DNA of 64,000 nt from Eledone cirrhosa (GCA_964016885.1 OZ024747.1:34534001-34598000), one strand, 5' to 3'. Counted from the stretch's first letter, positions 284 to 58,000 are shown. A program made the numbers and translations. The notes: generated by a model from the letters alone, not told the origin.

Positions 284-597
284 TACGATATTAAATAAAT
301 GGAAACTATATTTATAAAACCATATTTATTTCATTATATATATTTCAGGGATATCATATTAAAACTATGTTATGCCTTCTTCAGACAAAATACAAATATT
401 GTATTTTGTCTGAAGAAGGCATAACATATTTTTAATATTATATCCCTGAAATATATATAATGAAATAAATATGGTTTTATAAATATAGTTTCCATTTATT
501 TAATATCGTAAATATACTCCAAATACTTGTTGAGTGCTTTTATATCAGTTATAAATATTTACTCGTTGTTAACCCAACAATTTAAATAAAACTTTAC
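284..597. mobile_element. Fold-back PLE-type remnant (inverted repeat 284-510 plus ~85-nt one-sided tail) in (TA)n
   Basis: Near-perfect palindrome centred near 397. Each arm has CTGAAGA..GAAA with weak flanking stems. (TA)n on both sides. Confidence 0.6.
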
Positions 598-661
598 ATA
601 TATATATATATATATATATATATATATATATATATATATATATATATATATATATATATAT

Positions 662-950
662 ATTCAACAACATAAGGTCTGCCTGTACGATCTAGAAAAT
701 AATAAATCAATACTCACAGACTCATATGGGCAAAAAGCCCATATGAGTCTGTGAGTATTGATTTATTATTTTCTAGATCGTACAGGCAGACCTTATGTTG
801 TTGAATTAAGATTTTTCACTCTAGCGATCTTATTAGTCAATTGCAACTATAACATGTAAATGTTTATCAAATATTAATTTATACTGCTCAGAAGCGATTC
901 CTAGAGGTGAAATGATTGTAAATGACCTCCTTGAGTCTAAACTCTAAGCT
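662..950. repeat. Perfect hairpin (662-806, ~70-bp arms, AAAAA loop) plus one-sided extension, in (TA)n
   Basis: attcaacaacataaggtc...tatgggc AAAAA gcccata...gaccttatgttgttgaat. Same layout as neighbouring PLE remnants, but no HHR core seen. Confidence 0.7.
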
Positions 951-1281
951 ATATATATATATATATATATATATATATATATATATATATATATATCATA
1001 GATCATCTCCTTAGAATTATTAGATACAATATATACCATTTCCTCTCCCAATTAGCATAATTAACCCCATATAAAAAATTCAAATAGTCCAGGCTATAAG
1101 AATAAAGGCTGCTATAAAGAAATATTTGATAAATAACCGAAAGCGGCCTCTTCGCGGTGACCTCAATAGAGTATTTACCCAACATTTCAACAGCATATAG
1201 AAACTGACTAAATATACCGTCAACCATACACAATTAGGTGTAAATTTAAACTTAGAAGAAACGTGTACATACCGTAATTAC

Positions 1282-1360
1282 ATTTCTACCATGGTTTCGT
1301 CCGTATTTTTAGATATCCTATTGTTAGGATGAATCTAGAGTAACATACTCTTCAGGAGAC
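1282..1360 (-). ncRNA. Hammerhead-like motif (type I, long stem II) in a probable PLE 3' remnant (~998-1520)
   Basis: Minus strand: tctc CTGAAGA gt...ac GAAAC CATG GTA gaaa. Palindromic stem III ACCATGGT, GUA triplet, imperfect stem I. Confidence 0.5.
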
Positions 1361-2257
1361 AAACTCAAGTTGGACAGTTAATTTTCCAAAGCGACCGCGC
1401 CAAAAATAGATTCAAAAATGACTAAGAATCGTGACGTGGCAGTGGTCAAGTTAGAAATAATGTGATTAGTTGCTTACGGCGGGTAGGCTGGTTGCTAGAG
1501 AGCGCAGCCCAATATCGCCCTAATATATATATACATATATATATATATATGTACGTATGTATATATATATATATCTTACTGCTTCCCCGTTCTCTCTGTT
1601 TCTCTCACCTTCTTTCGCCCCCTCTGTCAGTTACACTTTCTCTCGACTGACCTCTTCCTCGCACTTCCACTCACTCACTCTCTGTTTCTCCCCTTCTCAC
1701 TAGATCCCGTTTGGCTAGTAGTGGGGTCCTTTCTTGCTCACATCTCACTCACGTCGGACGGTCTGTGTCTTGACCGCTCATGAAATCCACCCAGCTTATG
1801 CTGACCGGATAACCATATTGCTTGTTTATTTTTCTATCTTCAGTTTGCTTCCTTCTATGTTGTTTACTTGTCTCACTCGCTTTACGCGATTTACGTGTCC
1901 CAATAGCTTTTTTTAGTTATTGCTCGCACCAACCTGAGGTATATGATTTTTAATGCGATGAAATATCAATGATGGTTGGCAAATCACTGACGAGGGACTA
2001 ATTTCATCATATCTAACGCATGTGCAACCACGCAGTATTCTTCTTTCTTCTGATGTTTTTTTATACATATATATATATATATATATATATATATATGGAG
2101 GAGGTTATAGTTTACTTGAAGCATTGTGTAATGAGGTATAAACGTTTGAATATGTATAATAAAGCCAAAACAATGCAGGTATGGACATAGAAAAAGAATG
2201 CAATTGCAAAAGATATTGTTGACAATTCGTCTTTTACCTTAGACTTATTTTAAACGT

Positions 2258-2292
2258 CCTTAATTTTCGAGATAATATCTCTTCTTCAGAGG
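2258..2292 (-). ncRNA. Minimal hammerhead in PLE1 pLTR (other copies 6007-6041 +; mutated at ~2855-2889 and ~8420-8455)
   Basis: cct CTGAAGA A gagata-t-tatctc GAAA ATT A agg. Palindromic AATT stem III, typical of dimer-type PLE HHRs. Confidence 0.7.
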
Positions 2293-3023
2293 GAAATAAA
2301 GGTCTCAAACCAGCGTTCTAAATATCTTTCCAAGCCATGCTGACAGGAAATAGTATAGAGTATATGTTCTATCTCTAATGTCAAAGAGTTAAAATTAGGT
2401 GGATAAAGAGTAGTCTCCCTTTAAAAGGGGTTTGTTTAGGGTTTTTTTATTATTTTTTAATATACATGCCTGTTTAAGTGTGTGGGAGAATGCATGAAGG
2501 TGTAAGTATGTGAGTGTGTGTGTGTGAGTTTGAGAAGATAAGTCTATTCGTAAATGTGGGGGCTGGTGTTATCTGGTGTTAGAACTGGTTTTGTGTGTGT
2601 ATGTGTGAGAGAGAATAAGTGTAGGTGTAAGCGTGTGTGTGTGTGCGTGCGTGTGTGTGTATGGGGGGTGTAAATATGGGGCAAGAAGCCCTAAAGAAAA
2701 AAAACCCCTAAACAAACCCCTTTTAAAGGGAGACTACTCTTTATCCACCTAATTTTAACTCTTTGACATTATAGATAGAACAGATACTCTATACTATTTC
2801 CTGTCAGCATGACTTGGAAAGATATTTAGAACGCTGGTTTGAGACCTTTATTTCCCGCTAAAGAAGAGGTATTATCTCGAAAATTAAGGACGTTTAAAAT
2901 AAATCTAAGGTAAAAGACGAATTGTCAACAATATCTTTTGCAATTGCATTCTTTTTTCTATGTCCATACCTGCATTGTTTTGGCTTTATTATACATATTC
3001 AAACGTTTATACCTCATTACACA

Positions 3024-55415: not shown

Positions 55416-55457
55416 ATTATTAATATTATTATTTTTATTATTATTCTTTTTATTATC

Positions 55458-55690
55458 GGGTGATGGATTGGCAGTATCGGTAGAGGGTAGGATGTCATGC
55501 ATTGACGCATAGAGTTACGGCCCTTTCCATTCCGAGTTCAAATCCCGCGGAGGTCAACTTTGCTTTCATCCTTACGGGGTCGATAAAATAAAGTACCACT
55601 AATGTACTGGGTAATTGCTGGCCTTGCCCCAAAAGTAGAAACAATCATTATTATTATTATTATTATTATTATTATTATTACTTATTACTA
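55458..55690 (+). mobile_element. tRNA-derived SINE with (ATT)n tail
   Basis: A-box-like TGGCAGTATCGG, B-box GTTCAAATCC, central gtcaactttgctttcatccttacggggtcgataaaataaagtacca block resembling octopus SINE bodies. Confidence 0.8.
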
Positions 55691-55752
55691 TTTCTCTCAT
55701 TCTATTATTACTATTGTTATCATCATCGTCACCATCATTATTATTTCCTCCA

Positions 55753-55947
55753 AGGTGGTAGATTGGCAGTATCGGTAGGAGGTCTGACGCCATGCTTTGC
55801 AACAAAGAGTTACGACCCATTATGATCTGCGTTCAAATCCCGCCGAAGTTATATTTGCCTTTCATCTTACGGGGTCGATAAAATAAAGTACCAGTAATAC
55901 ACTGGGTAATCAGCTGGCCTTGTGCTAAAAGTAGAAGCAATTATCAT
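55753..55947 (+). mobile_element. Second tRNA-derived SINE of the same family
   Basis: Same A box, B box, central block and ..aaaagtagaa.caat end. Confidence 0.8.
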
Positions 55948-57181
55948 TTCCTCCAATATAAGTTCTTTCCCCACCGTCGTAATAGTTAAAACATCTGTTT
56001 GGAAAGTGTTAATTCATAATTTCAAACTGATGTCAATCACCTGAAAACAATGTTTTACTTTGCTTTATATTTACGAATTGAAATCACATATTTTATAGTT
56101 TTCATGTTCGGGTACTCATCGCATATAATGAATTCAGGATTCAGGAATACTGTTCATTTCTAAATAGAATTTATCAACGTTGGCTAACAACCTCCAAGTT
56201 TGATACCGATGCTCTCTTCTCAAGTGATATATGTTTAAATGTAAGTATGGCTGAAAACCGTACACACGTTATAATCTCGGAGATATACACTACGTACCCA
56301 CCCAACCCTCACACCCACTCACACACACGCCCACACAAAATATGTATTTCTACACACATATATATATATATATATATATACGTGTGTGTGTGTGTGTGTA
56401 TGTGTGTGTTCGTGCGTGTGAATGTATGTGTGTATGTGTTTGTCGTTTGTGCAAGTATGTGTGCGTATATAGTTAGATAATTAGATATGATTGTATGTAG
56501 GCATGTATACATATATGTATATATGTATGTATATATGTAGGCATGCATGAATATATGTATGAACATCTGTAAGTATATATGTATGTATGTCTGCTTGACT
56601 GTATATATAAATCAATTGCATAGTGTTACGTATGAAACAATTGATTGGAACAGTCATTCTCTACTCCTATGCATATTCGGAAAGTCTTGATATTTCAAAC
56701 ATGAATAAAATATCTGATGAATGGAATGTTTTACAAATATGTAGACAGAGAGGTAATTTGACCGTAAATTTGAGATGCTATCTCAAGTGTAGATTTCTAT
56801 TTGATACGGATAAATATTCATCAATAACTTCACACTGACGCGGTGTACCCCTATCAGAGACATTTAGTTTACTTAGAGCTTTCAATACGTTGCTCATTCG
56901 GAATATTTTATAATATATTGAGGCACATGTTTGGTGATAGGCAGCGCACATATATTTCTGTAAATCTACAAGACCTATTGTCAAGTGATTAATAATGGTT
57001 CTCACGGTTGTATATTAAATGTATATATATATATATATATACATATATATATATATATATATATATATATATATATATATATATATATATATATATATAT
57101 ATATATATATATATATATATATTTCGTTTCTGAATTTGTTTAGCAAGAATTTTATCTGAAAACGTGTGTTGAAACCGATAT

Positions 57182-57494
57182 TGTTATACTTTGGGAGGGT
57201 CATGTTGCCAATAAGAAACACATGCACCAGATGCTTCACTCCAATTTATTATAAATTAAATTTATAAATTTAAGAATTTATAAATTTCTGGTTGGTTAGC
57301 TGGTTCCATAACGGTTGTTCATATATTATCAAAGTTCTTTCGTCACACATTCTGTGATCTCTTCAGTGACTGGGGATTCTTCTCTTTGTTTTGTGCCTCT
57401 CCTTTGTTCTGTCCTACGCCATCTTGTTTTCCTGTGTCACAGCATCTAGTGCGTGTGTTTCTTATTGGCAACATGAATCTCCCAAAGTATAACA
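57182..57494. mobile_element. 313-bp MITE-like element with ~48-bp TIRs ending TGT...ACA (Ginger-like termini)
   Basis: tgttatactttgggagggtcatgttgccaataagaaacacatgcaccaga / tctagtgcgtgtgtttcttattggcaacatgaatctcccaaagtataaca. Flanks atat / gtat. Confidence 0.75.
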
Positions 57495-57501
57495 GTATAT
57501 A

Positions 57502-58000
57502 TATAACAAAGAAAATGTGGTAAGGAACCAGGTGGACCATAACGCACCAAAGTACTCAATACTTAGGGTAGTAGAGTGGGTATTAGGAACGAGTAAGACC
57601 ACGACGGCTGAGCTCAAGCCGTTTCGACGGCTAATTCTGGACTAAATGAAAATTTATCCTGGTATATAAATAGCCGAGCTTCTCAAGGGGTAATTCCATA
57701 TATGGTCAAAGTGATTGTCACAAGGATTGGTCACAAGTTAGTAGTAATTATGTGATGGAAATTAGTGGGGGAGAGGGTAGCTAAACCTACTGGCAGGTTT
57801 AGCCACCCTCTCCCCCACTAATTTGCCATCACAGAATTACTACTAACTTGTGACCAATCCTTGTGACAATCACTTTGACCATATATGGAATTACCCCTTG
57901 AGAAGCTCGGCTATTTATATACCAGGATAAATTTTCATTTAGTCCAGAATTAGCCGTCGAAACGGCTTGAGCTCAGCCGTCGGGGTTTTACTCGTTCCTA
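57502..58000. mobile_element. Fold-back remnant of the PLE4 family (palindrome centred ~57795, ~80-nt tail on the left arm)
   Basis: Homologous to ~26010-26308. Arms nearly perfect. Confidence 0.9.
57893..57986 (+). ncRNA. Hammerhead with U3:A8 core (mirror 57598-57691 minus)
   Basis: acccc TTGAGAA g..cggcta...tagccg.c GAAAC ggct-tgagctc-agcc GTC ggggt. Confidence 0.7.

Follow-up and report, generated by a model that had tools for sequence, protein, structure and literature searches.

Inverted Penelope-like element pairs with one short and one long end in (TA)n arrays of Eledone cirrhosa, and their probable origin by twin priming

Penelope-like elements (PLEs) inserted in (TA)n microsatellites were analyzed in a stretch of 64,000 nucleotides from Eledone cirrhosa (GCA_964016885.1 OZ024747.1:34534001-34598000), called the window below. 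This animal DNA is AT-rich and dense in repeats, and its (TA)n arrays number 50 after merging. Its PLE pairs lie head to head in inverted orientation, and one outward end is short while the other is long, a strict one-of-each pairing of ends. They are probably the products of programmed twin priming followed by head-to-head joining of two cDNAs, the joining being a step that we infer.

Pairs were established using self-BLAST of the 64-kb window and end-to-end alignment of the arms. The ten insertions listed as inverted pairs with unequal ends in a first-pass annotation of the same sequence were all recovered as such (10/10). As a selection control, each of the 50 (TA)n arrays was searched inward for an inverted partner within 6 kb, which added two unlisted pairs (27017-27418 and 57123-57495), both short/long. 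All 12/12 window pairs were short/long, with the long arm running 40–144 nt past the short site; this extra stretch is referred to as the tail. No equal-ended PLE pair was found in the window by the scan from all 50 arrays, and the sole equal-ended inverted element it returned was a mariner at 16570-17465. Under independent site choice at each end, the probability of 12/12 mixed pairs is at most 2.4e-4.

One scan of genome contigs supplied an external set of nine loci with Hydra PLEs (L001-L009). The short/long tally took in only pairs with both ends in the pseudo-long terminal repeat (pLTR) or tail zone, 12 from the window and four external (L004 and, in L008, 6322-8248, 9704-9808 and 9856 to ~10595). 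All 16 were short/long (bound under independent choice 1.5e-5; 0.016 when restricted to the six pairs outside the first-pass list). Short/short and long/long pairs, which the first-pass annotation had asked after as a possible match in number for the short/long class, were absent from the window and the external loci (0/16). In L008 9704-9808 the long arm consists of tail only and stops 9 nt 3' of the short start, the geometry that two primers on one RNA would leave.

The window pairs were as follows, the tail hairpin being described below.
284-597, Pair A: short arm on the left, long arm on the right with a tail of 87 nt; centre a hairpin whose 3-nt loop is at 396-398; hammerhead-like core at 410 (plus) and 384 (minus); tail hairpin 516-535, plus strand, 5 nt 3' of the short end.
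662-950, Pair B: short left, long right, tail 144 nt; clade not assigned; centre a perfect 70-bp stem with a 5-nt loop at 732-736.
2097-6160, PLE1a: long left arm 2097-2693 (minus strand); short-ended right arm 2697-6160, with a partial tandem pLTR, an open reading frame (ORF) and a 3' pLTR.
7390-8188, Pair C: non-coding hammerhead element; long left with a partial tandem, short right.
8247-8575, PLE1b: long left arm of 114 nt, short right arm of 213 nt; both endpoints as in PLE1a.
9076-13506, PLE2 (Hydra clade): long left (outer end approximate); short right with a 5'-truncated reverse transcriptase-endonuclease (RT-EN); tail hairpin 9167-9199, minus strand, 3 nt from the short end.
17530-18094, Pair D: long arm on the left, its outer end undefined between 17466 and ~17530, and short arm on the right; the centre carries a 26-nt duplication; tail hairpin 17562-17585, minus strand.
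22623-26310, PLE4a (Hydra clade): short arm on the left, long arm on the right; the centre carries an 11-nt duplication; tail hairpin 26234-26257.
26345-26538, Pair E: short left, long right; hairpin centre with a 4-nt loop at 26402-26405; tail hairpin 26472-26490.
27017-27418, Pair F: long left, tail 107 nt, short right; hammerhead core at 27311 (minus); tail hairpin 27082-27112, minus strand.
57123-57495, Pair J: long left, tail ~55-59 nt, short right; hammerhead-like core by eye.
57502-58000, PLE4b: long left, short right; endpoints as in PLE4a; hairpin centre with a 6-nt loop at 57789-57794; tail hairpin 57554-57577, minus strand.

Two of the ends first proposed, 9190 and 17538, lie inside a tail and had to be moved. 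The tail hairpin of PLE2 spans 9167-9199, so its true long end is further out, at ~9076 if the (AT)5 there is target. The left arm of the insertion first placed at 17538-18094 has further tail sequence in common with the element at 27017, and its long end falls between 17466 and ~17530. Next to the long end at 26538 there is no more than a degenerate TA tract, and for PLE2, D and E the long-end coordinates are approximate. A candidate terminal-inverted-repeat element at 57182-57494 was dropped when it proved to be the short/long Pair J. Several (TA)n arrays (6159-6217, 13504-13516, 26312-26346 and 57496-57505) are common to neighbouring insertions of different families, the same microsatellite having been targeted repeatedly.

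Endpoints recurred between independent insertions as the first-pass annotation had proposed. In PLE1 the short ends at 6160 and 8575 are the same nucleotide, as are the long ends at 2097 and 8247; the tail, 42 nt by the earlier count, is 40 nt beyond the TA-ambiguous bases, and the long end does lie inside the start of the ORF, 28 nt into it (ATG at 3024). Both PLE4 ends recur within TA-ambiguous bases, with a tail of ~75-83 nt where ~80 nt had been given. Both ends also repeat in L008 family 1, and the short end alone in L008 family 2 and family J. The PLE4 arms are 94-98% identical within an insertion vs 88% between insertions. A SNP comparison of the three PLE1a pLTR copies was star-like and gave no provenance signal. 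The PLE2 arms (9207-9593 vs 13101-13503) differ by 14% with several indels, more than those of any other pair; either the insertion is old or it was made from two subfamily RNAs.

That short ends fall on a TA merging into the target was borne out by 2-5 nt of TA microhomology with the (TA)n target at 11/11 window short ends (Pair J stood outside this test). Over nine families the probability is 1.5e-4 if the phase is random and 0.012 if the best phase is taken. Only two long ends, those with a known continuation, could be checked; their microhomology is 0 nt in PLE1 and 1 nt in C. In 9/11 tails, TA runs of the same or greater length lie inside the tail, closer to the array, and were passed over; therefore microhomology alone does not select the short site. 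The short end of L008 family 1 repeats with 1 nt of microhomology only.

A bulged stem-loop is located just 3' of the short end in 7/12 window pairs (six families). It takes the form RYUC, an upper stem of 3-6 bp, a variable loop, a UU or UA bulge and GARY, mostly followed by ACU. The hairpin was present in 8/8 protein-verified Hydra families with a readable tail (seven in strict form) and starts 3-11 nt 3' of the short end (standard deviation 2.4, n=11); L004 carries a version with a 2-bp upper stem. The distance from short end to hammerhead core, taken from a list entered by hand with A and E adjusted for alignment overshoot, is 57-188 nt (n=10), and with a standard deviation of 40 nt vs 2.4 for the tail hairpin the hammerhead was rejected as a ruler for the short end. 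Base pairs were counted on anchored coordinates, since loop lengths vary and MAFFT put the 5' stem wrong. Pairing was kept at 6/7 stem positions in 14/14 copies with several pair types; positions 1, 2 and 5-7 differ in pair type between copies without loss of pairing. ViennaRNA gave all four lower-stem pairs a probability of at least 0.6 in 12/15. A descriptor of the hairpin returned nine window matches vs 2.1 ± 1.5 in 100 shuffles; 9/9 were in PLE context, including two outside its training (13895 and 28014). Judged from these patterns, the hairpin likely sets where the short-site copy starts in the Hydra clade.

In the six new Hydra consensuses of PMC8557442, inspected by eye, the hairpin is exact in Amil-2, Ajap-1 and Ajap-2, of which Amil-2 is not independent because it is apparently the same family as L008 family 2. 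In L002 and L003 the hairpin stands 15-25 nt ahead of the start codon, so it may act in translation or transcription. L002 has two tail hairpins in tandem before its start codon (837-917), and the Hydra-1_Ajap consensus (PMC8557442) holds a second near-match.

The arms overlap over the same 3' segment in 12/12 window pairs. Eight centres are asymmetric, the arm with the greater 5' extent being the short one in PLE1a, PLE1b and PLE2 and the long one in C, D, F, J and PLE4a. The short arm of the first three contains sequence absent from the long arm; it is therefore no plain copy of the long arm and must be RNA-templated. Nine true asymmetric junctions were tested for duplications at the centre. 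Two were clear, of 11 and 16 nt (background 0.6%; 0/658), and clear local duplications at the junction belong to PLE4a and D. Such duplications resemble the templated insertions of microhomology-mediated end joining. L008 10287 was considered and left out of the test, not being a junction.

Programmed twin priming would proceed as follows. Both cut target ends would prime cDNA on element RNA, one at the downstream long site and the other at the upstream short site, which in the Hydra clade would be positioned by the bulged hairpin. Both priming events may take place in one asymmetric ribonucleoprotein (RNP), often on one RNA; two RNAs in one such complex are counted under the same reading. The short primer would be registered by 2-5 nt of pairing to the UA run beside the hairpin, and the long primer would start unpaired. 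Where the downstream RT stopped at the upstream primer the arms would abut, and otherwise they would overlap. Asymmetric centres would then arise by end joining with local duplications, and hairpin centres when one cDNA snaps back and anneals to the other. The earlier proposal that both broken ends prime at two RNA positions and that the two cDNAs are joined is supported as to the priming, by the RNA-templated short arms of PLE1a, PLE1b and PLE2 and by in vitro work on PAc, a Poseidon PLE of Anolis, which cleaves and extends both target strands and uses two internal RNA start sites bounding the tail (PMC11167929). Its two fixed positions need the qualification set out next, and its joining step is a presumed one. 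A wider claim is put forward tentatively, as plausible rather than probable: the programmed asymmetric two-primer reaction may be the normal PLE pathway, one RNP loading both cut ends on two RNA sites, with the Hydra hairpin acting like the template-positioning element of telomerase and the UA tract just 5' of it pairing with the (TA)n primer.

Several observations weigh against programmed twin priming with joining. The centres of A, B, E and PLE4b (4/12) are perfect hairpins with 3-6 nt loops, so a snap-back step is needed there. Clear duplications were limited to 2/9 junctions, two others being marginal (8 nt; 4.4%) and five unremarkable. The PLE1b arms are no nearer each other than to the PLE1a arms. 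The inverted end is mid-ORF in 3/7 external Hydra pairs in which it is readable (L006, L007 and L008 2729-3890), so two fixed positions are not obligatory, and the non-Hydra insertion L008 8290-8451 is a pure snap-back that ends mid-ORF. Solo single-ended copies exist (27932-28113, 6218, 13517, family G, L003, L005 and L008 2460-2572). External short ends are weaker, with 3, 3, 3, 1 and 1 nt of microhomology and one ambiguous. The hairpin descriptor was made post hoc from six families and its pairing scores are partly built in; since it demanded pairing, the covariation count is not an independent test. In the external loci 6/11 descriptor matches were in Hydra tails or 5' untranslated regions and five were non-PLE background. 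The tail hairpin is absent from 5/12 window pairs (PLE1a, PLE1b, B, C and J), and in the published consensuses it is degenerate in Crog and Amil-1 and was not seen in Obim (PMC8557442). The PAc data gave no start-site difference between strands and no homology at initiation (PMC11167929).

Among the external loci, L003 and L005 are solo short-ended copies, L001 is cut at both ends, and L002 and L009 yield no ends. The arms of L006 and L007 overlap by 52-69 nt, and the other end of L007 is cut off. L008 2729-3890 was dropped as a mixed-family pair, as it proved to be an inversion; the gap between its arms is 2 nt, as in LINE-1 (L1) inversions. Inverted arms of different records, L006 39-90 and L007 4488-4549, end at the coding motif NVxTN and restart at RNIIWYNPP, and the NVxTN stop is possibly an internal priming hotspot or a coincidence. 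The nine loci carry Hydra and other PLEs in (TA)n arrays within bacterial metagenome-assembled genome (MAG) records, and are probably host-animal DNA in the MAG assemblies.

Programmed twin priming was weighed against four other readings. In the first, both arms start at the long site and one tail is later removed, either by EN resolution guided by the hairpin at the DNA level or by a deletion through slippage between (TA)n and a TA run of the element. Slippage would leave TA microhomology as found at the short ends, PMC8557442 ascribes the tail to EN-mediated resolution, and PMC11167929 cites the D. virilis tail as required for EN recognition. Tail removal is nevertheless unlikely: RT starts at both tail boundaries in vitro (PMC11167929), long/long pairs number 0/16, equally good TA runs nearer the array went unused in 9/11 tails, the short end of L008 family 1 repeats at 1 nt of microhomology, and the arms of L008 9704-9808 do not overlap.

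In the second, proposed already in PMC3846280, a single cDNA folds back, primes itself, is copied toward the target and is caught by the other target end at TA microhomology. The four hairpin centres, with a PLE4b loop closed by a natural 2-bp stem, and the snap-back of L008 8290-8451 speak for such self-priming. It cannot, however, yield PLE1a, PLE1b and PLE2, whose short-arm sequence is missing from the long arm, or abutting arms, and it gives no reason for the hairpin-centred PLE4b to stop at the short site of the asymmetric PLE4a; as a general account it too is doubtful.

Dual priming by two independent RNPs, each picking its start site at random, is improbable, as it predicts at least 50% short/short or long/long pairs where 0/16 were seen. 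The usual full overlap of the arms would be simply explained by two RNAs, and the 14% divergence of the PLE2 arms, the head-to-head look of 19434-19977 and the lack of strand preference in PMC11167929 are also in its favour. That the fold-backs are sequencing or assembly artefacts is hardly credible, for although the arms are 100% identical in Pair B (over ~70 nt) and L004 (over 758 nt), they differ by 2-14% in 10/11 measured window pairs, the inversions stop at element ends and leave out the flanks, the same ends are seen at more than one locus, and this geometry is known both from other genomes and from published work.

The other PLE features of the window were as follows.
3024-5606, plus strand: PLE1 ORF, RT and C-terminal GIY-YIG, one in-frame stop at 3972-3974.
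6218-6260, minus strand: family J solo short end at (TA)n.
13517-13650, minus strand: family J solo short-ended copy.
13846-15470, plus strand: family G (Hydra EN), with an internal pLTR copy and a tail hairpin at 13895-13919; 3' end at (TA)n near 15470.
27932-28113, plus strand: solo long-ended tail fragment between two (TA)n arrays, tail hairpin 28014-28039.
61657-63968, minus strand: near-full Hydra-clade ORF (family H), frameshifted, with RWR, DKT and CxCx5C; tail unreadable.

No inverted partner was found in the window for family G, by the search from (TA)n arrays, or for 27932-28113. A diverged family E copy at 173-235, with no partner in the window, ends at (TA)n ~4 nt beyond the short site of E. 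At 19434-19977 two different hammerhead-bearing families stand head to head between (TA)n arrays without a TA spacer, the right-hand element ending at the PLE4-equivalent short site; this is possibly a single event with two RNAs. Outside the PLEs, the mariner-type DNA transposon at 16570-17465 has inverted ends of ~109 bp and a broken transposase. A head-to-tail array of ~1.7-kb LINE 3' segments, 97-99% identical, occupies 34860-44623 and is joined to a longer minus-strand LINE copy, with RT ORFs at 38378-41779 and 44833-48483.

The PLE1 product matched RVT_1 (3e-15) and GIY-YIG (6e-7), the single ORF with RT and C-terminal GIY-YIG that marks an EN+ PLE, and its best named relative was an Octopus bimaculoides protein (62% identity). 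With a DKG motif and a CCHH-type EN it departs from the Hydra-clade definition, and on these motifs it appears to lie outside that clade. Hydra-type RT-EN was found by tblastn in PLE2, PLE4, G and H, whose translations have the CxCx5C linker and no CCHH in the EN, as defined in PMC8557442; RWR and DKT are present in the 61657-63968 element, the region being truncated in PLE2, PLE4 and G. By motifs and 35-57% tblastn identity to P0121 these four are placed in the Hydra clade. A, B, C, D, E, F and J are non-coding. The pLTR is a partial tandem in PLE1a (2697-3051 vs 5849-6160), and likewise in C and G.

Using our own descriptor, eight hammerhead-like cores were identified in A, C, D, E, F and G vs 0.25 in shuffles, their cleavage being predicted only. 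Relaxed cores occur in PLE1 and PLE2, and those of J and PLE4 were recognized by eye only. The descriptor found no hammerhead in Pair B, which also has no tail hairpin, and the folded tails of PLE1, B and C have no hairpin in common. Among the 150 matches listed in an Rfam scan of the window, no hammerhead or other family reached the gathering score, and only miRNA-type low-complexity noise was returned. The short right arm of C starts at the predicted ribozyme cut, ~7973 (7971-7975), and that of L008 9755-9759 starts 4 nt 3' of one; the other short arms do not begin at a predicted cut. These starts are hints that the template in vivo is at times RNA cut by the ribozyme, in contrast to the PAc data.

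Prior art was compared in PMC11167929, PMC8557442, PMC3846280, PMC4209133, PMC8969392 and PMC2837659, and in 10.64898/2026.07.22.740005 and 10.1101/2024.12.14.628481. In the available parts of this literature no strict pairing, Hydra tail hairpin, PLE twin priming, short-end contrast in TA microhomology or abutting PLE arms were found, and the first three may appear in the 2005-2006 PLE reviews, and end pairing in Fig. S2 of PMC11167929. The formation of tandem and inverted PLE structures and microsatellite targeting are named as an open question in PMC8557442, and the steps after first-strand initiation are left unexplained in PMC11167929. Strict pairing connects the pair of start sites already known with the two ends of the target. 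The tail hairpin of the Hydra clade, an element of 20-35 nt for which compensatory variants exist, is open to mutation in the in vitro assay now available, and it helps curators to define PLE ends and to recognize non-coding Hydra derivatives. If true, the two-primer pathway would account for the tail, the inverted pLTR and the targeting of microsatellites by a single mechanism, and RNA-templated DNA writing independent of poly(A) would gain a cis element that can be transplanted.

As in PAc, the genomic ends of the elements described here lie at two internal positions bounding the tail, the presumed RT start sites. The available text of PMC11167929 does not address inverted pairs or a coupling of the two sites, inverted dT being the sole use of the word in it. 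Its initiation without homology is matched at the two checkable long ends (0-1 nt) but not at the 11/11 window short ends (2-5 nt), and the Hydra short site has a conserved hairpin here. As the first-pass annotation had stated, inverted 5' copies and tails are known in PLEs (PMC3846280; PMC8557442, Fig. 2), where the inverted copy is 5'-truncated, the tail is often at one end, insertion is targeted to (TA)n and palindromes occur at the inverted junction. The published tail is optional and of 30-40 bp, whereas here it is 40-144 nt and on exactly one arm in 16/16 pairs; the available parts of those papers report no tail RNA structure, in contrast to the Hydra-clade hairpin found here. The Hydra-clade PLEs of PMC8557442 share with PLE2, PLE4, G and the 61657-63968 element RWR/RWK, DKT, the CxCx5C linker, the lack of CCHH and the (TA)n target, along with a hammerhead that is putative here, and neither tail hairpin nor end pairing is described in its available text, though the hairpin is visible in 3/6 consensuses.

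In twin or dual priming of L1 (PMC2837659), two target 3' ends likewise prime two cDNAs that are joined inverted, and three external Hydra insertions look just like it. The first L1 primer is at poly(A), the internal site of the second varies, there is no overlap between the arms, and the pathway is a minority one. Here both sites are internal and fixed, the arms usually overlap, and the pathway is seemingly a main one; no poly(A) ends were found at the window pairs, and target-site duplications are unreadable in (TA)n. Abutting arms of the L1 type are wanting in 12/12 window pairs, occur in L008 9704-9808 and 2729-3890, and are loosely approached in L006 and L007. Earlier work had already described the tail on a single arm, the inverted copies, the pair of start sites and the targeting of (TA)n. 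The idea put forward in the first-pass annotation was right and half published; the coupling statistic and a small conserved RNA hairpin are added here.

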